Shown here in pieces: positions 1 to 11,551 of a stretch of 32,000 nucleotides of DNA. Positions within the stretch are counted from its first letter, which is position 1. Every line of letters starts with the position of its first letter. Both the position numbers and the translations under genes were made by a program. The DNA lies in the NCBI RefSeq assembly GCF_000582535.1, contig NZ_CP006932.1:270001-302000 (forward strand), written 5' to 3'. This DNA is from Candidatus Saccharimonadota bacterium. Its GTDB lineage: Bacteria > Bacillota_I > Bacilli_A > Mycoplasmatales > Hepatoplasmataceae. Under the pieces are notes generated by a model. That model saw only the letters and a list, made by a program, of their open reading frames with translations. It was not told the DNA's origin and did not search any database.

Positions 1-1290
1 AGATTTAGAAATTGAATCAATCGTAGATTTAGAATTTTCGGCAGATGGTAATACAAATGGAGCAATTGTCGATACTAATGGTGATCAAAATGGTGACGCT
101 ATTTATATGTGAGGACAAAATAATAATTATCAAATTGGTGATGGAACAACTACAGATAAATTTTCACCTGTAGAAATTACACCACAAGGTGAAAGCGATT
201 GAGGGGGAGATATAATTAATTTGGAAATCGCTCAATTATTTAGTGGTGCTACCGTTGACACTAATTATGATGGTTATGCCGATACACTTTATTTATGAGG
301 TAGTAATTATCGTGGTGAAATTGGAAATGGAGAAACAAGTGGATCAATTTCAACTCCTCAAATTATTACACCACAAGGTGAAACAAATTGAGATGGTAAT
401 ATCATAGATTTTTCATTGATGTATGCAAATACAGCTGTTTTAATTGATACTGATTATGATGGATATGGTGATTTAATTTATGGTTGAGGTGAAAATATTA
501 ATTATGAAATATCACCTAAAGATGATAATACAATTTTATATCCTGAAATAATTGCTCCAGAAGATAATGATTGAGGCGGAAATATTATTGATTTAAAATT
601 AGGTTCTCGATTTGGTGGAGTAACTGTTGATAGTAATTATGATGGTCTTGCAGATATGCTTTATATGTGAGGAGATAATAGTTATGGAGAACTTGGAATA
701 GGTGCATCACCTCAATATTCTCAATATCCTACAATAATTAACCCAGGATCTGGTAGTTGAGGTGGTGATATTATAGATTTTACACTTGGATTTTTTAATT
801 CAGGTTTATTAATAGATACCAATTCAGATGGAATAGGAGATTTAATTTATAGTTGAGGACAAAATAATTATGGTCAACTTGGTGATGGTACAAAAGTAAT
901 TAAATATTCTCCAAAAGTAATTACTCCTAGTTCAGGTGATTGAGGCGGAAATATTCTTCAATTTGAAAAAGGAAGTTATACTTCTAGTGTAATAATAGAT
1001 TCTGATTTAAATGGATCAGGAGATCTACTTTATATGTGAGGACAAAATGGTAATGGTCAATTAGGAGCAGGAACAACAAGCGATATTTCTGTTCCAACAA
1101 TTGTTTACCCTGAAGGTCAATCATCTTGACCCGGACCTATTTATTCATTATCAAATGGATTTAGTAGTACCGGTGTAATTACCGATAATAATAATGATGA
1201 TCTTATTGATAGTTTTTATGCATGTGGAAATGATAACTACGGACAATTAGGAAATGGAAATAGTGATAGCAATATTGATCAATTATATTT
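1..1290 (+). repeat. Seven tandem intragenic repeats of about 183-186 nt that encode the propeller blades
   Basis: The block ..D(T/S)N.DG.(A/G)D.LY.WG.N.YG.LG.G....P..I.P.G...W.G.IID.. recurs. The WG dipeptide recurs at a spacing of 183-189 nt. Confidence 0.85.
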
Positions 1291-3538
1291 TATAGTTATT
1301 TATTCTACAGATTCTGCTTCTATTGCTAGTTTAGATTTTATTTATGATGATAATCAATTATTTATTGATTTAAAATTATATGATTATAGTAATGTAATAA
1401 ATAGTGATCCTACTGTTTTATTAATAGATAATGGAGATACTAATTATACAACAACTTTTATTTCTTCAAATTCAGATATTTCTAATGATCAATATTATTA
1501 TCAGGTGAATGGAATTGAACGAGGAACACACTATTATTTTAATGAAATAATAATTAATGATGTTGCTTCTGCTATTTCAGAAGATATAATAACCGACTAT
1601 ATCATTCCTGATTATTCTATAAAATCAGTAACTGAGCAAACAGCTACAATTGATTTAAATTTGAGCGAAAATAATAATGTAGATTTTAGTGATTATACAA
1701 ATGAAGAATTAAAAGTAAAAGTAAATTATACTGATCTTGACCAAAATGATTCTTATAATCAAGAATTTACACTTAATAGTTTAATATCTAATCAAGATCT
1801 TACAATTAGTAGTTCAGCAGAAGTTGAATTAACTAATTTAAAAGCAGAAACAAATTATCAAATAGATTCAATTCAGTATTTCTATCAAAATGGAAGTTAT
1901 ATATATCAAATTAATCAATCTGCTACAAGATTTCAAACTCAATCTGTTCAACCAGAAATTCAAGGTGCAACAAGTTTAGTAATAGATGAAACAATAACTT
2001 CAAATTCATTTCAATATACAATTGAAATAGATAATCTAATTCCTAATGCTGATAATACTAATTTTACAAATTATGATGTAAATGATGGTTTATGATTAAT
2101 GGATGAAGACGGATACATTTATAAATCAACTTTTATTACAAAAGAATTTTATCAAAATGATAATTATAGTAATGTTTCTGCTGATAATAGTTATGATTAT
2201 ATAATTACTTATGAAGTAAATGGACTAGGTCCAGGTGAATATTTATTTAATGGAATTAGCTTTGAGCAACCATTAAATCCTCTTGATTCTAATATAGTTA
2301 CTTTAAATCCTCCAATGGATGTAATAATACCTGATGATGGATATGTAGATCCAGTAGTTCTTGGTAGTACTTTTGCAGTTTCTAGTGTTGCACCTACATC
2401 ATTTCAATATAGAATTAGTTTAGATGACTTAATGTTAACAGGAAGCGTTGGTAGCGAACCAGAATTTGCTAATTTTGATCAAGCGGACGGACTTTATTTA
2501 AAAGATAGCAATCAAAATACTTATCATTCAGAATATGTACCAAAAACTGCTGTTTATCAAGGTAGTGGAACATCTGTTGGATCAGAAAGATACCAATTTA
2601 CTTTTGAAGTAAGTGATTTAGTACCAGATACTGATTATGAATTTGATTCTATAAGTCCTAACCAAAATGGACCATTTACACCTATAGAAAATGGAGAAGT
2701 TCATACAGATGCATCTAGTAGTGATTGCGATTGTCCTTGCTGATTATGATGACTTATGTTATTACTATTATTATTAATTTTAATTTTAGTAATCATAATA
2801 TTAATACAAGGTGATTCTAGTAAAGAAAAAAGTAAAAAGAAAGAAAAAATAACAAAAGAAGAAAAGGTTAATAAAAAAGAAGATAAAGCAAATGATGAAG
2901 ATAAAATAAAAGAAGAAGAAAAAAACTTAACAATTTATAATATTGAACAAAATCAACCTAAAAAAGAAGGTGGTTCTGAAAATTCTGAATTAATAGATAA
3001 ATTAACAACAGAAATTTTAGAATTATCTGAAAAGGTAGATGATTTAAATAATAAAAATAAACCAGTAGAAAAAGAAAAAACAAAAGCAAAATCAAGTAAA
3101 AAAAGAAAAAGTAAAAAAACAAAAGCAAAAACAGAAAAACCTGATGATACAAATAAATTAACTGAAGAAATTTCAGAATTATCAAAAATTGTAAGAAAAA
3201 TAGATGAAGAGAATAGAGATATTAAAATTAATATTGAAGAAATTCATAATTCAGGAAATAATAATACTTCACAAAATAAAAAGAAAAAAGCAAAAAAACC
3301 TAATAAAACAGAACAATTAACTGAGGAAGTATTAGAATTATCAAAAATTGTAAAAAAATTACATAATTCAGGAAATAATAATAATAATAAACCTGTTTCT
3401 AAAAAATCAAGAAAAAATAATGAAACAAAAAAAATATCATCAGAAATTTCAGAATTATCAAAAATTGTAAAAGAAATTAATAAAGAAAATAAAGATATTA
3501 AAAAAGATATCAAAGAAATTAATAAAAAAAAAAAGTAA
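1..3538 (+). CDS. Large surface-anchored protein, 5' end cut by the window edge (roughly 30 codons missing). It has a seven-blade RCC1-like beta-propeller, four Fn3/Ig-like modules, a single C-terminal TM helix and a ~260-aa Lys/Glu-rich cytoplasmic tail.
   Basis: The frame starting at nt 2 is open to TAA 3536-3538 once TGA is read as Trp. Track ORFs 1505..2095, 2099..2743 and 2756..3538 are all in this frame and are separated only by TGA codons. Seven blades carry (Y/L)(M/L/G/S)WG.N.YG(Q/E)(L/I)G.G, with the WG at about nt 104, 291, 480, 663, 850, 1033 and 1220. L..(E/D)T.Y.(I/F)DSI tyrosine-corner-like motifs occur at about 1840-1880 and 2620-2660. The hydrophobic stretch WLWWLMLLLLLLILILVIIILIQ lies at 2741-2809. 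The protein is colinear with the minus-strand paralog 8663..11551. Confidence 0.85.
2995..3470 (+). repeat. Four copies of an amphipathic L(T/S)(T/E)E(I/V)(L/S)ELS(K/E)(I/K)V motif in the cytoplasmic tail
   Basis: The near-identical nucleotide block gaattatcaaaaattgta ends at about 3192, 3351 and 3469. A diverged copy, gaattatctgaaaaggta, lies at about 3020-3037. The peptides are KLTTEILELSEKV, KLTEEISELSKIV, QLTEEVLELSKIV and KISSEISELSKIV. Confidence 0.8.
3524..3534 (+). repeat. A11 homopolymer that forms an A_AAA_AAG slippery heptamer directly in front of the TAA stop
   Basis: The sequence aat aaa aaa aaa aag taa spans 3521-3538. The -1 frame reads gta att cct aaa aag ... and stays open to TAA 3673-3675. 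Confidence 0.9.
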
Positions 3539-3676: not shown

Positions 3677-4447
3677 ATGGTAAAAATAATAAACAAAAAA
3701 AAATCAAAAAATACTTTTGTTATTGATGGTCTTATTAATAGTAATGAAAAAATTTCAAAAATAATTAAAAAAGCAAAAAAAAAGAATATAAAATCTGTTT
3801 CTCTTCTTATTAATTATGATCAAGAAAAAGCAACCAATAAGAAGAAAAAAGTAATAAGAAGAAAAAATAATAAAAAACAACAAAATAATAAAAATTTACA
3901 AATAAAAAATATTGCTTATAATCAAGAAAAAGAAATTAATAAAGAATTAAAACTTCTTCCTGCAAATGCTTCTATTTCTAAAGAAAAAGAAAACACAAAT
4001 AAGAATTCTTTTGATAAAAATATTAAAAAGGAAATTAATCCTTTAAAACAAAACGAAGAAATAATAAATAGTAATAAAACAATTGGAGAAATAATTGAAC
4101 AAGCAGATAAAAATAACGTAAAATCTATTTCAATTACTATTAATTATCAAAAAGTAAACAAAAAAAGAAAAAGAAAACATTATAATAATTCAAATAATAA
4201 TAATCCAAAAAATAATCAAGATAATAAAGATAAAAAAATAGATCAGAGTATAAATAATAAAGCTGAAAATCAAGAAAAAGAATCAATATCAAATAATCAA
4301 GATGTTCCTAAAATAGAAGAAGAAAATATCGAAATTAAAGATTTAAATACAGAAGAATTAAGAATTTTTAAAATCAGAAAATCAAAATATGTAAAAATCT
4401 CTAATCCTAATAAATATTTTTCATCTGATAAAAATAGAAAAAAGTAG
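3677..4447 (+). CDS. Highly basic Lys/Asn-rich protein (256 aa) with an internal duplication; function unknown
   Basis: This is an intact ATG..TAG ORF with no TGA. The duplicated segment is INSNEKISKIIKKAKKKNIKSVSLLINY versus INSNKTIGEIIEQADKNNVKSISITINY. The protein contains KKRKRKH and no hydrophobic segment. It is followed by a strong hairpin terminator. Confidence 0.6.
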   Translation: MVKIINKKKSKNTFVIDGLINSNEKISKIIKKAKKKNIKSVSLLINYDQEKATNKKKKVIRRKNNKKQQNNKNLQIKNIAYNQEKEINKELKLLPANASISKEKENTNKNSFDKNIKKEINPLKQNEEIINSNKTIGEIIEQADKNNVKSISITINYQKVNKKRKRKHYNNSNNNNPKNNQDNKDKKIDQSINNKAENQEKESISNNQDVPKIEEENIEIKDLNTEELRIFKIRKSKYVKISNPNKYFSSDKNRKK

Positions 4448-4503: not shown

Positions 4504-4893
4504 TTATTTCATTGCTTTTTTATCTTCGATTTTGCAGTTTTCACCTTCACATTTTTCTAAATGTTTTTGAAAGTGTTTTTTAAGATCTTCTTTGCATTCT
4601 TTGCATTCATTTCCACAATGTTTTTGATTGCATTCTTTGCATTTTTTACATTTATCTTTGCAATTTGATAATTTGCATTCTTTGCATTCCTTGCATTTAT
4701 CACAATTGCATTTTTCTCCATGATCTTTACATTTGCTGCATTTATTATTACAACTATTTATAATACATTCTTTGCATTCCTTGCATTCATCATTACAATT
4801 TTTATCTTTGCATTCCTTGCATTTTTTACAAGCTTCGCTTTCAAAATGCTTATCTTCATCTTTATTTTTAGTTTTTTTTCAAAAATTAAACAT
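4504..4893 (-). CDS. Cysteine-rich, lysine-rich small protein (129 aa, 24 Cys); candidate metallothionein-like or Csp-like metal-binding protein
   Basis: Absent from the supplied track because codon 5 is TGA (Trp). Hand translation: MFNFWKKTKNKDEDKHFESEACKKCKECKDKNCNDECKECKECIINSCNNKCSKCKDHGEKCNCDKCKECKECKLSNCKDKCKKCKECNQKHCGNECKECKEDLKKHFQKHLEKCEGENCKIEDKKAMK, ending in a stop. The length is 390 nt, exactly 130 codons. An AGGA lies at 4903-4906 (minus sense) upstream of the ATG at 4893-4891. The gene ends at the bidirectional terminator. There is no signal peptide or TM segment. Confidence 0.75.
4590..4827 (-). repeat. Dispersed direct repeats of TTTGCATTC(C/T)TTGCAT (plus strand), encoding CKECKEC modules
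   Basis: Copies lie at about 4590-4608, 4628-4647, 4672-4698, 4767-4789 and 4806-4827. All are inside the Cys-rich CDS. Confidence 0.85.
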
Positions 4894-4976: not shown

Positions 4977-5738
4977 TTAATGAATTTTAAAATAATTATT
5001 TAATAAATGTATTTTATCTTCTTTTGAATCTACTATTCCAATTGTATAATCACTTTCATAAAGCTTAAAGAAAAAATCAATAAGTTTTTCAATAGATTTC
5101 TGTTTATTTTTTTTATTTATAATTAATTTATTTTTTTCTTTTTGTGAAATATTTGCATAATTTAACATTTCTTCTAATGATTCACTCTCTGTAGAAGAAG
5201 GAGCTAATACTTGTACTTTTAATTTGTAATTTTTATTTTCAAGATTTTTTGCTATTCCTTCGCTAAAAGTAGAGACAAAAAATTTACTGCTCGAATAAAT
5301 TATTTCATCTAGTAAAATTTCAAATCCTACAGTAGAAGAGATATTTATTAATTTCTTATTTTTATTTAAATTATCTTTTATAAACATAATTGAAAGTAAA
5401 GTTAATGCTTTAATATTAAGATCAATTAAATTTGCAATTCTTTTAATATTAGAATTTCAAGGATCATTGTGTTCACCAATTCCAGCATTATTAATAAATG
5501 TTTTGATATTATATTTTTTAATTGTTTCATAAAATTTAATTACATTATCTTCGATTGATAAATCATAAATAAAAACTAATACTTTTATTTTATATTTACT
5601 CTCTAATTCTTTTTGAAGATTTTCTAACAATTCTTTTCTTCTTGCAACAATAATTAAGTTTTCTTTTCTTTCTGCAAATGATTTTGCAAGTCCTTTTCCA
5701 ATTCCTGAACTTGCACCTGTAATTAATATATATTCCAT
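4977..5738 (-). CDS. Short-chain dehydrogenase/reductase (classical SDR), 253 aa
   Basis: Track ORFs 5457..5738 and 4977..5387 join in frame through TGA 5457-5459. The motifs are TGASSGIG (TGxxxGxG), NNAGIG and YSSSK (YxxxK). The length is 762 nt, 254 codons. Confidence 0.85.
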
Positions 5739-5759: not shown

Positions 5760-6338
5760 TTAAAATTTTAATATTTCATTGATTTCTTTTTCTAATTTAT
5801 TATCAATTTTTTCTTTGCTGTCAACATTTAATGGATTTTTAAATAATATATTATCAATTTCATTCGTATTTTTATAAAATATTTTTGTTTTTTCAATTTC
5901 TGGTTTAATTTTTTTTATAATTTGATTTACTGAATTTAATATTTTATTATCAATTTTTTCTTTGCTGTCAACATTTAATCGATTTTCAGATAATATATTA
6001 ACCTTTTCATTCGTATTTTCAGCAAGTTCTTTTGTTTTTTTTATAATTTGATTTACTGAATTTAATATTTTATTTATATTTTCTGTTTGCTCAGTATTAT
6101 ATTCAAGATCTGTTTTTGAATCTTTTGCAATTATAATTGCAATTGAAAATGATAATAAAGCAATAATTGAAGAAAAGAAAAATTCAATTCAAACAATCCA
6201 ATCATTATTTGTAGAAGGAATAAATTTTGTTAAAGATAAAAAGAATATAATAAATCAAATTACTATAATTGTTCAAAATCACCATTTTGAAATAAGTCAT
6301 TTTATATTATTTAAAAAATTATTCTTATTTTTTTTCAT
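5760..6338 (-). CDS. Membrane protein with two TM helices and a C-terminal tandemly duplicated coiled-coil-like segment (192 aa)
   Basis: Invisible in the track because it has six in-frame TGA codons among its first ~50 codons. The translation begins MKKNKNNFLNNIKWLISKWWFWTIIVIWFIIFFLSLTKFIPSTNNDWIVWIEFFFSSIIALLSFSIAIIIAKDSKTD. It then carries two copies of ILNSVNQIIKK...NTNE..NIL..N.LNVDSKEKIDNK. The length is 579 nt, 193 codons. Its ATG lies 1 nt after the upstream gene's stop. Confidence 0.65.
5798..6075 (-). repeat. Intragenic tandem duplication of about 147 nt (49 codons)
   Basis: The block atcaattttttctttgctgtcaacatttaat occurs at about 5802 and 5949. The block tttttttataatttgatttactgaatttaatatttt occurs at about 5912 and 6038. 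Confidence 0.85.
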
Positions 6339-6339
6339 T

Positions 6340-7128
6340 TTAATATTCTAATGATTTTGCAAAAAAAGGTCTATTTTTTTCAAAAAAATCAATTATTTCT
6401 TCTGTAGGGATTTTTGCATAATAAATATTTGGATTATAATTTTTTTTTCATGGATTAGTTTTGTGACTTTCTTTTACTAATTGTAATGTTGAAAATTCTC
6501 TTAATAAAAAGTAAGCAATTTCAAAAATAATTAATTTATTTTCTTCAATTTTAAAAAATAAATTATCATCATCTAATCCAGTACGATAAATGTTTTTTAA
6601 AATTGGGCCATTTTCAAAAGCACATCATTCAATTGGTTTATTTTTATCAAATTTTGCAAAAAATAAATTAAATATCTCTTGATTATTTTTTCATAATTTA
6701 ATTGATTTATTTAAATTAATTGCAAAAGCATTCATGAAATAAAGAATTTTATGTTTTCGCATTTTATTATAATTTTTGTTTGTTAATGTACTTAAATAAT
6801 CTTTGATGAAATTAATTGTGTCATCAACTTTTAAAATTTCTTTATTTTTCTTTTCAATTTCTCCTCTTTTGCTTATATCCATCTCTTTTTTTATTTCATT
6901 TCTTATTTCTTCAATATTATTTTCTTCAGAAAATTTTTTGGAAAGTCCACTAAATTCATCGTCATCATATTTTTCAAAATTAACTTTAGAATCTAAATAA
7001 GTTTTAAGTAAATTTATTTCATTTTGATTTGTTTTTTGATCTTTTGAATTATTTTTTATATAATATTCTTTCAATCTATTAAATTCTATTTTTCTTATTC
7101 AAGTAAAAAATTCCATTTCAATTTCCAT
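6340..7128 (-). CDS. Protein with a C-terminal DUF4065/Panacea-like (SocA/GepA-type) domain and an acidic N-terminal extension (262 aa)
   Basis: Track ORF 6691..7074 starts at an internal TTG. The frame extends upstream through one TGA to ATG 7128-7126 and downstream through three TGA codons to TAA 6342-6340. The segment KHKILYFMNAFAINL...LFFAKFDKNKPIEWCAFENGPILKNIY resembles the DUF4065 core (KL.KLLY...F.....eAW.yGPV...vY). The domain call rests on recalled consensus, not on a search. Confidence 0.55.
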
Positions 7129-7199: not shown

Positions 7200-8624
7200 T
7201 TAAATATTTATTACAATTACTTTCTCTTTTGTCATCGAAAGAATAGAATTTTTGATTCCTTGTGTTCCAAGTCCAGAATTTTTATAACCAATAAAAGGGA
7301 AATTATCAGGTCCACGTTGACCTTTTTTATTAAAATTTACTGTTCCAACATCAAGTTTATTTGCAAGATAAAATAATTTATTAATATCTTTTCCAAAGAT
7401 CGAAACTTGCAATCCAAATTCACAATCATTATGAATTTTAATTAGTTCTTTTAAATTATTATAAGTAATTATTGGAAGCAAAGGACCAAATTGCTCTTCT
7501 TTTGCTAATCTATCAGAAGGTAACACATTAGTAATTAAAGTAGGATAAAAAATATTATTATTGATATTTTTTTTATTTCCAATTAATATTTTTGCTTCTT
7601 TATTTAATGAAGATAATAATTCTTCTTGATATTTTAAAGATTTTTGATCAATTAAAGGGATAATATCTGCATTTTTTTCTGGAAGACCAATCTTTAATTT
7701 TTTTATTTTTGCTAATAAAAGATTTTCTAATTTATTTTTATTTTCTTTATTTACAAAAACTCTTTTAATTGCTGTACATCTTTGTCCAGAATAAGAAAAA
7801 GCCCCTTTTATTATTTCAGAACTAGCATCTTCTAAATCTGCATCATTTAAAATAATTGCTGCATCTTTTCCTCCAAGTTCCATAATTAAAGGAATCATAT
7901 TTGCTTTATTTGCAATATTTTTTCCTACATTTGTACTTCCTGTAAAATTTATAAAATTTATTAAAGGATGAGTTACTAAATAATCACTAATTTCGCTTCC
8001 CTTTCCTGTTACCAAATTTAAAATTCCTGTTTCTACTCCTGTTTCTTCTCATAATTTTATAAGTTTAGTAGCAAAATAACTTCCTTGTGTTGCTGGTTTA
8101 AATACACAAACATTACCACTAATTAAAGCAGGAGCAATTTTAGAAATTGCAAGATTTATTGGAAAATTAAAGGGACTTATTACTAAAATTACACCATATG
8201 GTTTTCTTTCTATTAAAGCAATTTTATTTTTATTTCCTTTATAAAATTGTTCACTTGATTTTGCTTCTAAATTTATGCGATACATTTCTTCTATTGTATA
8301 TCTTATATATGTAATCGATCTTTCAATTTCAGTAATTGAATCATCATAATTTTTTGCAACTTCATTTACAATTAAATTTGCTAGAGTCTCTTTATTTTTT
8401 TCAATAAGATCTGCTCACTTACTAATAAAAAAAGCACGTTCAGAAATTGTTTTTTCTTCTCAACTTTTTTGTTTTTCTTTTGCAAATTTATAAATTAAAT
8501 CAACTGTTTCTTTATTTAAAGCATAAACTTTTGCATATTCTTTTTGTGTTGTTGGATTTAAAATTGAAACATATTTTTCTTCTTTAAATTCTTTTCCTAA
8601 AATATTATATTTTCCTATAATCAT
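7200..8624 (-). CDS. gapN: Non-phosphorylating NADP-dependent glyceraldehyde-3-phosphate dehydrogenase (aldehyde dehydrogenase family), 474 aa
   Basis: Track ORFs 7200..8015 and 8049..8285 plus the N-terminus join through TGA codons. The protein begins MIIGKYNILGKEF. It aligns along its length with streptococcal GapN: ISPFNFPINLAISKIAPALISGNVCVFKP, FINFTGST, MELGGKD, YSGQRCTA (catalytic Cys) and GPDNFPFIGYKNSGLGTQG. The length is 1425 nt, 475 codons. Confidence 0.9.
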
Positions 8625-8662: not shown

Positions 8663-11551
8663 TTATTCAAAATCAGAATTAAGTTTTTCTTCCATTTCTT
8701 TTGTTCTTCTTTTCATTTTTAAATCAATTAATAATAAAATTATAGCCAATAATATAATTATTATTAAAATAATAATTATTATATAAATAATTATTTTTGT
8801 TGATATATTATTATCTGTTTTAATTTCTCCTGATCCAGAAATATCTAAAAATTCATTATTAAAATTATTTGTAAAACTAATTTTTGTAAAATTATATGTT
8901 TTATTCGCTTCTAAATCAGAAACATTAAATATAAATTGATATTTTACTGTTCCTGATTCATTTCCTTCACCAATTAAAGAAGAACTACCTAAAATATAGT
9001 CTGCATCATATATATTTCCTTGATCATCTTGTAAATATAATTTATCATTTTGATTAAAATTACTAAAAATTGGTTCATTTTCTGAATCATTTTCAATATA
9101 AATTAGATTATCAATTGTAATTTGAAAATTAAAAGAATTAGTTGTAATTGAATTTGGATCAATAAAAAATGAATTATCAACAAATTCTTTATTTATTATT
9201 AATGTTTCAATTTGAAGTGGAGTAGTGAAATTTATTGTATCAGGATTAGATCCATTTGGATCATTAAAACCAATTCCAGAAAAATTATAAATTTGTCCCG
9301 AAATTAAATCTTCTTGTAAAAAAGTTAATTGATAATTTTGTGTTCCATTAATTTCTCCATTTGTAATTAATTTTGCATCAACAAAAGAAGAATTATAACT
9401 TTCGCCATTTTCATCAATTAATCAAATGCCATTATTTATATCATATTGTGTAAAATTATCTTTTGTTTCATTTTCTTTTAAATTATCAATTTCAATTGTA
9501 TATTCAAAAGAATTTGTTGTAATTGAGTTATTAATTATTGAAATTGAATCAGCTTCAATTATTGGTGTTGCCGGAATTGTTTGAAATTGTGTTACTTCTT
9601 GATCAATTTGATATTTATAATTTCCATCTTCATAAAAATATTGAATTGAATCAATTTGATAATTTGTTTCTGCATTTAAATTATCAATGGTAGTTTGATA
9701 AGAATTATCGATAATAAATTCTTTATAATAAATATTATTATTATCAAGATTTGTATAATTTACTTTTACTTTTCTTTGATCATTTGTGTAATTATCAATA
9801 TTAAAATTATTACTATTTTGACTAGTATCTAAATCTATAATTGCTTCTTCTTCATTGATATTTGAAATTTGATATCCAGAAATTAAATAATCAGTATTTA
9901 TTTCTTCTAAACTGATATCAAAAATATTATTATTTATTAATATTTGTGTGAAATTATAACTATTAGCATATTCAATATTATCAATTTGATAGTAATATTG
10001 ATCATCATCAACATTAGATTTATCAGTAATAAAAGTTGTTTGATATTGAATATCATTTTGATCAATTAATATTACTTCTGGTCCTTCATTTATAATATTT
10101 TGATAGTCATCTAATTTAATATCTAATTCAATATTATTTTCCTCATAATAATTTAAATTTATACTTTTAAGAAGAAAACTATAACTTGAAGTGATTAATT
10201 CTGGATGATTTTTACTTTCTGTTGTTCCATTACCAAATTGTCCATAATTATTATATCCCCACATGTATAAAGTATCAGCGTATCCATCTAAATCATTATC
10301 AATTATTACTCCTATATTTTCTCCACCCAAAGATATGTCAATAATATTACCATTTCAATCATCTTGTCCTTCTGGTGTTATTATTGTAGGATTGCTTACT
10401 TTACTACCAAGATTACTTCCGATTTGTCCATAATCATTATTTCCTCATTCATAAAGAATATCCCCAAATCCATCATTATTTATATCAATTGCTGCTGATG
10501 AATTCGTACCCTCTAAAGATAAATCAATTATATTACCATTTCAATCATCTTGTCCTTCTGGTGTTATTATTGTTGGATAATTTACTTTACTAGGATTATT
10601 ACCAACTTGTCCATAACTATTATATCCCCACATGTATAAAGTATCAGCATACTCATCATTATTAACATCAATTGCAAGACTAGAATGAGAACTACCTAAT
10701 TCTAAATCGATTAAATTTCCATCTCAATAATCTTGATTTTGTGGAGTTATTATTGTTGGATAATATTCATTATTATTTGTTCCATCACCAAGTTGACCAT
10801 AATTATTTTGTCCTCACATATAAAGAGTATCGCCATATCCATCATAATTTGTATCAATAGTAATTCCAGAATGACTACCACCTAAAGATAAATCGATTAT
10901 ATTACCATTTCAATCATCTTGCTCTTCTGGTGTTATTAGTGTAGGAATAGATCTATTATATGTTGTTCCATCACCAATTTTTCCATTACTATTATTTCCT
11001 CACATATATAATGTATCTGCATATCCATCTAAATTAGTATCAATTGTAATTCCTAAATGATTATAGCCAATATCGAAATCAATTATATTACCATTTCAAT
11101 CACCATTTGTTGGTGTTATGATTTGTGGATTATATTTATCAACCTTATTAATTGCATTTCCTCACATATATAATGTATCTGCATATCCATCTAAATTAGT
11201 ATCAATTGTAACACCAGATTGCGAAGAACCTAATGAAAAATCGATTATATTTCCGTTTCAATCATCTTGTCCTTGTGGAGTAATAATTATTGGATTTAAT
11301 ATAGGATCACTTACTTCGCCATTTCCTATTTGCCCATTGCTATTATCTCCTCACATATAAAGCGTATCGGCGTATCCATCATCATTAGTATCAACTGTCA
11401 TTCCTGTATTTGATCCACTCAAATCAAGAAGAATAATCTTATCATTTTGATTTATCTTTACTTCGTTATTAAAATTTAAAAAAGATAAATTATTATTACT
11501 AAAACCAAAAAACAATATTGAAATAAAAAACAATATTATATATTTTTTCAT
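8663..11551 (-). CDS. Surface-anchored protein (962 aa) with a signal peptide, seven-blade RCC1-like propeller, Fn3/Ig-like modules, a C-terminal TM helix and a short basic tail. It is a paralog of <1..3538.
   Basis: I translated the entire minus frame by hand. It is open from ATG 11551 to TAA 8665-8663 (2889 nt, 963 codons), with TGA or TGG as Trp. The N-terminus is MKKYIILFFISILFFGFSNNN. Seven LY(M/E)WG blades are present. The C-terminus is ...KIIIYIIIIIILIIIIILLAIILLLIDLKMKRRTKEMEEKLNSDFE. NYQIDSIQYFYEDGNYKYQIDQ matches NYQIDSIQYFYQNGSYIYQINQ in the plus-strand copy. Confidence 0.9.
10200..11410 (-). repeat. Seven tandem intragenic blade repeats of about 180 nt
   Basis: The plus-strand strings cctcacat, ccccacat or cctcattc (the complement of ..WG) occur at about 11349, 11159, 10999, 10811, 10626, 10443 and 10258. 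Confidence 0.85.

Follow-up and report, generated by a model that had tools for sequence, protein, structure and literature searches.

The 32,000-nt stretch of DNA analysed here (the window) has a GC content of about 20% and is placed by database matches in Candidatus Hepatoplasma crinochetorum, a mollicute with a very small genome that lives as a gut symbiont of woodlice (terrestrial isopods). The subject of this analysis is a pair of adjacent genes between positions 5760 and 7128, here called A and B, which a preliminary description had taken for a candidate Panacea (DUF4065) antitoxin and its membrane toxin. All genes in the window were called with genetic code 4 (TGA = Trp). Under table 11 the open reading frames (ORFs) of A and B are fragmented at TGA codons, and table 4 restores both, with exactly the boundaries and the TAA-a-ATG junction first described. 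TGA encodes every one of the four Trp residues of A, and three of them, W10, W146 and W227, confirm the code because they lie on columns that are invariant for Trp in eight close family members. Read in this way the locus holds four co-oriented minus-strand genes, encoding an aldehyde dehydrogenase (ALDH), A, B and a short-chain dehydrogenase (SDR) (Table 1). A search of the window with a hidden Markov model (HMM) gave no second A-like copy.

The preliminary description had recognised a DUF4065/Panacea core near the end of A from two segments, KILYF (residues 127-131) and IEWCAFENGPILKNIY (residues 166-181), and four kinds of comparison bear this out. A family profile of seven Hepatoplasma homologs, scored against 1.84 billion representative proteins, gave 40 matches at E<=1e-3, among them about 26 longer relatives and 11 short proteins of about 150 aa (109-162 aa). 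The short proteins align to the C-terminal domain of the A profile only, and all 11 exceed the Pfam gathering threshold for SocA_Panacea (PF13274; 25.7 bits), with E-values from 2.6e-21 to 4.3e-7. In a Pfam scan of 34 retrieved proteins at E<=0.01 the sole non-Panacea family was one weak KARI_N match. When the A family was aligned with the 11 canonical proteins in hhalign, residues 108-258 of A matched essentially the whole canonical Panacea protein (99.35% probability, E 5.9e-21, 133 columns), with an insertion of about 18 aa preceding the beta-hairpin in the A domain. In the reciprocal direction, an HMM made from the 11 canonical proteins only scored A at 63.9 bits (E 1.8e-18), while the top of 2,000 shuffles reached 14.2 bits. 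As a single sequence A also matches phrog_1281 (E 5.9e-11, residues 99-253), a family that is likewise matched by the bona fide Panacea protein P0035 (E 4.7e-25). Because the profile search, hhalign, the reciprocal HMM and phrog_1281 agree, we interpret the likeness as true homology rather than a chance resemblance of motifs, and the C-terminal ~160 residues of A are, with near certainty, a genuine though strongly diverged Panacea domain.

The signature residues of the family are also retained. G174 and P175 of A are invariant in the 26 long-form and 11 canonical sequences, and the third signature position is Ile or Val in nearly all of the 26. GPV is the Panacea signature motif and is critical for neutralisation (PMC8832971). 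A further position, H222 of A (H221 in P0001 numbering), is conserved in 88% of the family and directly follows a predicted helix at 213-220. If this helix is alpha5, H222 may correspond to the interface His at the C-terminal end of alpha5 in the PanA of Bartonella choladocola, which was found critical by mutagenesis (PMC10440598). The AlphaFold2 (AF2) model that underlies this comparison was built on P0001, an ortholog 92% identical to A, and has a pLDDT of 84 and a pTM of 0.79. Between residues ~96 and 250 it has seven main helices and a beta-hairpin, in an order consistent with the published Panacea fold, a compact arrangement of alpha1-alpha7 and beta1-beta2 (PMC10440598). A Foldseek search of the model against PDB and a profile search of PDB sequences gave no relatives, and no solved Panacea structure was found. 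Weak support comes from three unnamed viral proteins of about 147 aa in BFVD that match the C-terminal domain of A (probability 1.0, TMt 0.52-0.58); a tblastn search with the A domain against 50,697 phage records gave zero matches.

The second feature of A is its N-terminal extension. The ~26 longer relatives (210-274 aa) have the same three-part architecture as A, that is, a conserved helix with the consensus EFF.WIR.IE...L (E-F-F-x-W-I-R-x-I-E-x-x-x-L), a variable and highly charged helical linker, and the Panacea-like domain. The hydrophobic stripe of the helix is fully conserved (positions 7, 8, 10, 11, 14, 19 and 23). The extension was first described as acidic and ~110 aa long; it is real and a trait of the family, its length is nearer 100 aa, and it is only mildly acidic (net charge -2, pI 5.4). 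None of the 40 proteins from the profile search was matched by the N-terminal part alone. Long-form A proteins were found in Ca. H. crinochetorum, Ca. H. vulgare and a metagenome-assembled genome (MAG) labelled 'Mycoplasmataceae bacterium', where every entry is annotated 'hypothetical protein', and as judged from these sequences the long-form subfamily appears limited to Hepatoplasmataceae-like Mollicutes. In the accessible part of the dataset of Kurata et al., PanAs of Spiroplasma, Mycoplasma and Ureaplasma are listed as 'noNTD' and Hepatoplasma is not among them.

Three identities for the extension were considered and rejected. A helix-turn-helix has no Pfam match, and in NCBIfam there were only insignificant sigma-70 matches (E 0.02, 14 bits against cut-offs of 133-184). 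Published multidomain PanAs (PAD1-Panacea, ZBD-HTH-Panacea, Panacea-Phd-C; PMC10440598) resemble A in that Panacea is fused to an extra conserved element. However, PAD1 in PAD1-Panacea has conserved histidines, a toxSAS partner and the gene order T|A, and the A locus has none of these: residues 1-110 lack a conserved His, and A is encoded ahead of its partner (A|T), which is a 2-TM protein and no toxSAS. The hydrophobic moment of the conserved helix is only 0.22, so that a membrane-binding amphipathic helix was rejected and a packing helix is more likely.

Protein B consists of a basic N-terminal segment (+4 to +5), two hydrophobic helices and a long, charged helical tail, and its predicted topology is N-in/C-in. 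Hydropathy and AF2 helices agree with the two transmembrane (TM) helices of the preliminary description, and the duplicated tail which it reported is an in-frame 147-nt tandem repeat whose units are 81% identical in DNA and identical at 26-27 of 49 aa. The AF2 model of B is of low confidence (pLDDT 63, pTM 0.22); for the tail, first described as a coiled coil, it indicates helicity only. B is identical to the database protein P0008, and its ortholog in strain AP027132 (P0009) has 157 aa and a single repeat unit. Weak matches of B to ExIF of the type VI secretion system (T6SS), TumE, mobilome CxxC and PDC-M44B were far under the cut-offs and were discarded. In A, the paralog P0003 of the Ps strain (L002, 6001..6825) has an 18-aa tandem duplication in its charged linker (ENEFEELINKFKKEQ-NYT-ENEFEELINKFKKEQ). 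Together with the duplication in the tail of B, this indicates that in-frame tandem duplication alters the length of both the antitoxin linker and the partner tail. Co-variation in length between the A extension and the B tail, a possible sign of a heteromeric coiled coil, was unsupported (rho 0.44, p 0.24, n=9).

Twelve distinct loci with an A-like gene were surveyed. An intact gene of 99-221 aa lies directly downstream in 10 of the 12 (one cut by a contig end), with a gap of -26 to +17 nt, and in these 10 loci the partner has an N-terminal segment of net positive charge, then two TM helices, and ends in a charged tail. The partner at L009 also has tandem repeats in its tail. The extension and the larger, repeat-bearing partner, which had been noted as atypical, are family traits and not local oddities. 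The pair was found in Ca. H. crinochetorum (three genomes), Ca. H. vulgare, the Mycoplasmataceae MAG and several metagenome contigs; a scan of genome contigs with a narrower alignment found the Ps genome only. Partner sequences could be aligned only among the window, L001 and L002-B1 (BLAST; window against L002-B1, E 1e-8), and jackhmmer searches from the partners recruited no further loci. The partners thus have an architecture in common, and a single homologous toxin family is not demonstrable beyond the nearest loci.

The genes on either side vary across the loci, with restriction-modification (R-M) genes frequent among them, and include ALDH/SDR, the infA-rpmJ ribosomal segment, purB, gmk/PP2C, type I or DpnII R-M, GmrSD and an Abi_2-like gene. 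ALDH and SDR flank the pair only in the window and in L001; across the loci nothing but the pair itself is conserved. A check of conservation, suggested at the outset, shows that the pair is not a single-copy housekeeping unit, as one genome has four copies and the insertion sites differ between genomes. The four A-like paralogs lie within ~22 kb of the 614-kb Ps genome (CWGI01000001.1, ~587-609 kb; L002, L003 and L006) and are 38-54% identical to A of the window; three have 2-TM partners and one is solo. Between these paralogs lie a number of SDR genes, genes of the arginine deiminase pathway and two genes resembling GmrSD. The pair of Ca. H. vulgare (L017, 4001..5285) lies between gmk and genes for a PP2C phosphatase and a Ser-Thr kinase, and the solo A of Ca. 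H. crinochetorum Ps (L003, 6001..6726) follows the same kinase and precedes rpmF, so that the insertion point differs from that of L017 although the surrounding housekeeping genes are otherwise alike. At L007 (4001..5263; Logan ERR14127475 contig) the A-like gene lies between infA and rpmJ in a ribosomal-protein operon. Its 2-TM partner, the only such case in the 12 loci, is frameshifted at an A7 run just past the TAATG junction. The frameshift may reflect pseudogenisation, slippage-prone switching or a mistake in the assembly. At L010 (4009..4866) a 285-aa protein directly follows the pair of A and 2-TM genes, with a match to Abi_2 that is below the cut-off (E 1e-4, 23.1 bits against 25.6), and a PIF1-family helicase comes next; this locus may be a small defence island.

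Selection was estimated as the ratio of nonsynonymous to synonymous substitution (dN/dS) between the window and strain AP027132. A has a dN/dS of 0.30, and the flanking ALDH and SDR have 0.10 and 0.12. In B the TM and tail segments are each near 1. From these sequences A appears constrained yet fast-evolving, and B appears to be either fast-evolving or drifting.

We favour, with some reserve, the reading that the A-B pair is a PanAT-like module of the type II toxin-antitoxin (TA) kind, or an abortive-infection-type defence module, with a membrane toxin. The Panacea homology, the conserved signature residues, the tight bicistron and an architecture of A plus a 2-TM partner that recurs at many genomic sites are shown by the sequences. 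Behaviour like that of the accessory genome, seen in the four copies, the differing insertion points and the R-M, GmrSD and Abi_2-like neighbours, also favours this reading, as does the fast evolution of the partners. The in-silico locus criteria for PanATs are a gap of <=100 nt, conservation across species and an operon of not more than three genes (Kurata et al. 2022; PMC8832971). The two genes are 1 nt apart in the window, and ten other pairs have gaps between -26 and +17 nt. Conservation across species is seen in the architecture, and a homology-cluster pipeline might miss the pair since the partner sequences are too diverged. The flanks change at nearly every locus, in keeping with the limit on operon length. 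The antitoxin-first order in the window is the commoner one among PanATs in the published survey (943 against 325). The variant PanAT-like pair first proposed is thus supported as far as sequence goes.

Several results weigh against this reading. In hmmscan, the check put forward in the preliminary description, A as a single sequence does not match PF13274 even at E<=10, and its eight close relatives are all below the threshold, the best of them (one of the eight) at E=0.08; two more distant or intermediate long-form relatives reach 0.0027 and 0.012, which is also sub-threshold. B belongs to no known toxin family and has no significant match in Pfam, NCBIfam, PADLOC or PHROGs. Its dN/dS, from two strains and few substitutions, is ~1.1, so that it is possibly drifting. 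L003, one of the 12 loci, is an intact A paralog with no partner, so A-like proteins can be maintained without one. The pair shares its orientation with ALDH and SDR, from which it is separated by only 71 and 21 nt, and no terminator was detected, so that the transcript may reach beyond A and B; a promoter/terminator scan is uninformative at 20% GC (48 found against 40.5 expected). Moreover, eight published candidate PanTs were non-toxic in E. coli (PMC8832971).

Three PanTs with TM segments have been validated as membrane-depolarising, and PanA neutralises by direct binding of the toxin (PMC8832971). By analogy with such systems we infer the toxicity of B, its binding by A, the part of A that neutralises and a role in defence. 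B would be inserted in the cell membrane as an N-in/C-in helical hairpin and, when free, would oligomerise and depolarise or permeabilise the membrane, as the validated membrane PanTs do. A would be the cytosolic antitoxin, translated first from the same transcript by translational coupling, and would keep B inactive by binding the parts that face the cytoplasm: the basic helix that precedes TM1, the charged tail, or both. In B. choladocola the predicted contact of the stand-alone Panacea, which mutagenesis supports, is with the cytosolic N-terminus of its toxin, ahead of the TM segment (PMC10440598). In multidomain PanAs it is the extra domain that neutralises, and Panacea has been proposed as a sensor (PMC10440598). 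If A works like these proteins, its extension may grip the toxin, with the Panacea domain as a platform or sensor.

The closest parallels are the membrane-disrupting PanATs of E. coli STEC O31, Bartonella apis/choladocola (PanT-D11) and Helicobacter sp. 13S00482-2 (PMC8832971, PMC10440598). As in the window, a Panacea gene lies directly upstream of a gene for a small membrane protein, antitoxin first and with a gap of a few nucleotides, and GP(V/I) and the His after putative alpha5 are shared. In the Helicobacter PanT, as in B, a charged or coiled-coil region accompanies the TM helices. The differences are that A, being so diverged, scores below the cut-off of the Pfam model by which PanAs are defined, and that it carries both an extension of ~100 aa and an insertion of ~18 aa, whereas the validated PanA that counters the B. 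choladocola membrane toxin has been described as a stand-alone Panacea. In the accessible part of the Kurata dataset, other Mollicute PanAs are partnered by toxin cluster T1, which is unannotated there.

The closest bona fide Panacea sequences are canonical short PanAs from AT-rich, mollicute-like metagenome contigs, such as P0035 (PF13274 E 2.4e-10). They share with A the motifs ESHKT.PW..N(Y/F) and I..EEI..YF. However, P0035 has 149 aa and no N-terminal extension, and is overlapped by a gene for a 150-aa soluble basic protein rather than followed by a 2-TM partner. This hints that in the long-form branch the extension accompanies the membrane partner. At the P0035 locus itself (L014, 3001..3889, on a contig of 24% GC) the overlap with the 150-aa protein, which is of no known family, is 14 nt, and the two are a candidate for a separate PanAT pair.

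SocAB of Caulobacter, a type VI TA system, is related in that SocA belongs to the same domain family (PF13274 = SocA_Panacea). SocA is, however, a ClpXP adaptor that degrades the replication inhibitor SocB, while B is a membrane protein with no SocB-like match. To our knowledge Mollicutes generally lack ClpXP. Class II holins and the RosmerTA toxin RmrT are, like B, small membrane proteins that carry a charged tail on the cytoplasmic side; in the free state they depolarise or permeabilise the membrane, as is proposed for B. They differ in that no sequence or profile likeness to B was detected and the context of a lysis cassette is absent, and RmrT is paired with an ImmA-type antitoxin (RmrA, node D25) and not with Panacea.

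A more specific version of the PanAT reading, which refines and does not contradict it, is that the pair is a dedicated phage-defence (abortive infection) module, in which the Panacea domain senses a phage cue and releases or activates B, so that the membrane potential collapses on a trigger and not through decay of the antitoxin. This is possible, if somewhat doubtful. It would fit the pairs that adjoin type I R-M, DpnII-type R-M, GmrSD or the sub-threshold Abi_2 protein, the match of A to the phage protein family phrog_1281, and the proposal of Ernits et al. that Panacea is a sensor in multidomain PanAs and that TA networks are linked to defence systems (PMC10440598). Against it, PADLOC gave no match for A and only insignificant ones for B, and several pairs lie among housekeeping genes (the ribosomal operon, purB, gmk). 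The proposed trigger is also conjectural, and the host has not been cultured. We know of no Hepatoplasma phage.

It is unlikely that the pair is not a TA system at all. In this reading B would be a membrane protein of the lineage that does no harm, for example a scaffold or anchor whose helical tail can be extended, and A would be its cytosolic partner or chaperone on a Panacea-like fold. The missing toxin domain in B would be explained in this way, as would a tail that changes length by tandem duplication in the manner of structural spacer proteins. The intact solo A at L003, to which near-identical 241-aa sequences occur in two other assemblies, suggests a toxin-independent role, and some 50% of the Panacea proteins surveyed in the literature lie outside TA-like loci. 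A housekeeping pair would nevertheless hardly be expected to have several paralogs in a genome of ~0.6 Mb, to change its insertion site, to diverge so extremely in the partner or to include a frameshifted partner. In addition, the layout of B, a small protein with a basic N-terminus, a TM hairpin and a charged tail encoded in tight coupling downstream of a PanA, fits in broad terms the published small membrane-spanning PanTs, which have charged or coiled-coil regions.

The contrast in dN/dS between B and A, together with the 49-aa indel in B between the strains, the frameshifted partner at L007 and the lost partner at L003, would also be expected of a decaying selfish element, in which A is kept, for example, as an anti-addiction orphan antitoxin and B of the window strain is functionally dead and drifting. 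We consider this quite improbable, as the ORF of B is intact in both strains with a TM hairpin that is 96% identical, an intact partner is kept at 10 of the 12 loci despite deep divergence, and the substitutions are too few for a firm dN/dS. This retention, the multiple copies and the shifting insertion sites speak against both a decaying element and a non-toxic pair.

Least probable by far is a prophage-derived remnant of a holin/antiholin-like lysis cassette, with B class II holin-like and A phage GepA-like: B is laid out like a class II holin, with a pair of TM helices in N-in/C-in orientation and charged residues in the C-terminal tail, and A matches a phage protein family and viral structure models, but phage structural, integrase or lysin genes flank none of the 12 loci, the phage-record search with the A domain was negative, B has no PHROG match, and neither B nor four other partners matched a holin family in Pfam or PHROG. 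Mollicutes have no cell wall, so a canonical holin-endolysin system has no target in them.

Table 1. Positions in the window of the A-B pair, its parts and the adjacent genes
Feature	Position	Strand	Basis or remark
Aldehyde dehydrogenase (ALDH)	7200..8624	-	Table-4 ORF
Gene A, long-form PanA-like protein, 262 aa	6340..7128	-	ATG at 7128, AGG 8 nt upstream, TAA stop 6340-6342
N-terminal extension of A, aa 1-~100	6829..7128	-	Alignments; AF2 helices H7-28 through H85-94; no Pfam/NCBIfam match
Divergent Panacea (DUF4065/SocA_Panacea-like) domain of A, aa ~101-258	6355..6828	-	hhalign, reciprocal HMM, phrog_1281, profile search, AF2
G174-P175-I176 (GGC CCA ATT), counterpart of the Panacea GPV signature	6601..6609	-	Sequence and alignment
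TAA-a-ATG junction, A stop to B start, 1 nt between (coupled bicistron)	6336..6342	-	Sequence ...TAT TAA A ATG AAA...
Gene B, putative membrane toxin, 192 aa	5760..6338	-	Table-4 ORF
TM1 of B, aa ~19-38	6225..6284	-	Kyte-Doolittle hydropathy and AF2 helix H19-38
TM2 of B, aa ~47-70	6129..6200	-	Hydropathy and AF2 helix; IE..FS...A..S motif common to nearest partner proteins
Tandem repeat in the tail of B, in frame, 1.9 copies of 147 nt (49 aa)	5796..6076	-	81% DNA identity
Short-chain dehydrogenase (SDR)	4977..5738	-	Table-4 ORF

Other genes in the vicinity are also of note. A 129-aa Cys-rich protein (4504..4893, minus strand) has about a dozen CKxC/CKEC motifs (MFNFWKKTKNKDEDKHFESEACKKCKECKDKNCNDECKECKEC...) and could be metal-binding, judging from its sequence. 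It is 96% identical in strain AP027132 with a dN/dS of 0.07, indicating strong purifying selection, and has no Pfam match on record. On the plus strand, positions 3677..4447 encode a protein of 256 aa that is rich in Lys and Asn and internally duplicated (…KKNIKSVSLLINYDQEK… / …KNNVKSISITINYQKVNKK…). In AP027132 the type I R-M genes hsdM and hsdR lie downstream of the Cys-rich gene in place of this protein, which makes the spot strain-variable. The region is flanked by two very large RCC1/WD40_RLD-repeat proteins, one of 1143 aa (107..3538, plus strand) and one of 962 aa (8663..11551, minus strand); the latter is 90% identical between the strains and under relatively relaxed selection (dN/dS 0.41).

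From its sequence the A-B pair appears to be a hitherto unrecognised, highly diverged version of PanAT, which widens a known family rather than founding a new type of system. Its practical impact is modest, as the host is uncultured and the type of system is already known. The pair shows that surveys of the hyperpromiscuous Panacea antitoxin that rely on Pfam thresholds overlook whole diverged branches in fast-evolving, AT-rich genomes that use code 4. Whereas the published Panacea family exchanges unrelated toxins freely, the long-form branch, however far its sequences have diverged, retains a single partner architecture of two TM helices with a charged tail, and with it a conserved N-terminal addition. 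In a genome survey from 2024 the defence inventory of the Hepatoplasmataceae consisted of R-M and CRISPR only, and toxins were not apparent (PMC10928387); to this inventory a multi-copy candidate TA/defence module may now be added. We would go further only as doubtful speculation, namely that the extension, with its striped helix and extensible charged linker, is an undescribed neutralisation domain for small membrane toxins and that long-form PanAT, unseen by surveys based on Pfam, has expanded, to up to four copies, as a main abortive-infection defence of this genome-reduced family. The long-form branch offers a natural system in which to ask by what means a soluble antitoxin neutralises a membrane toxin, and whether, in multidomain PanAs, the extra element neutralises while Panacea senses.

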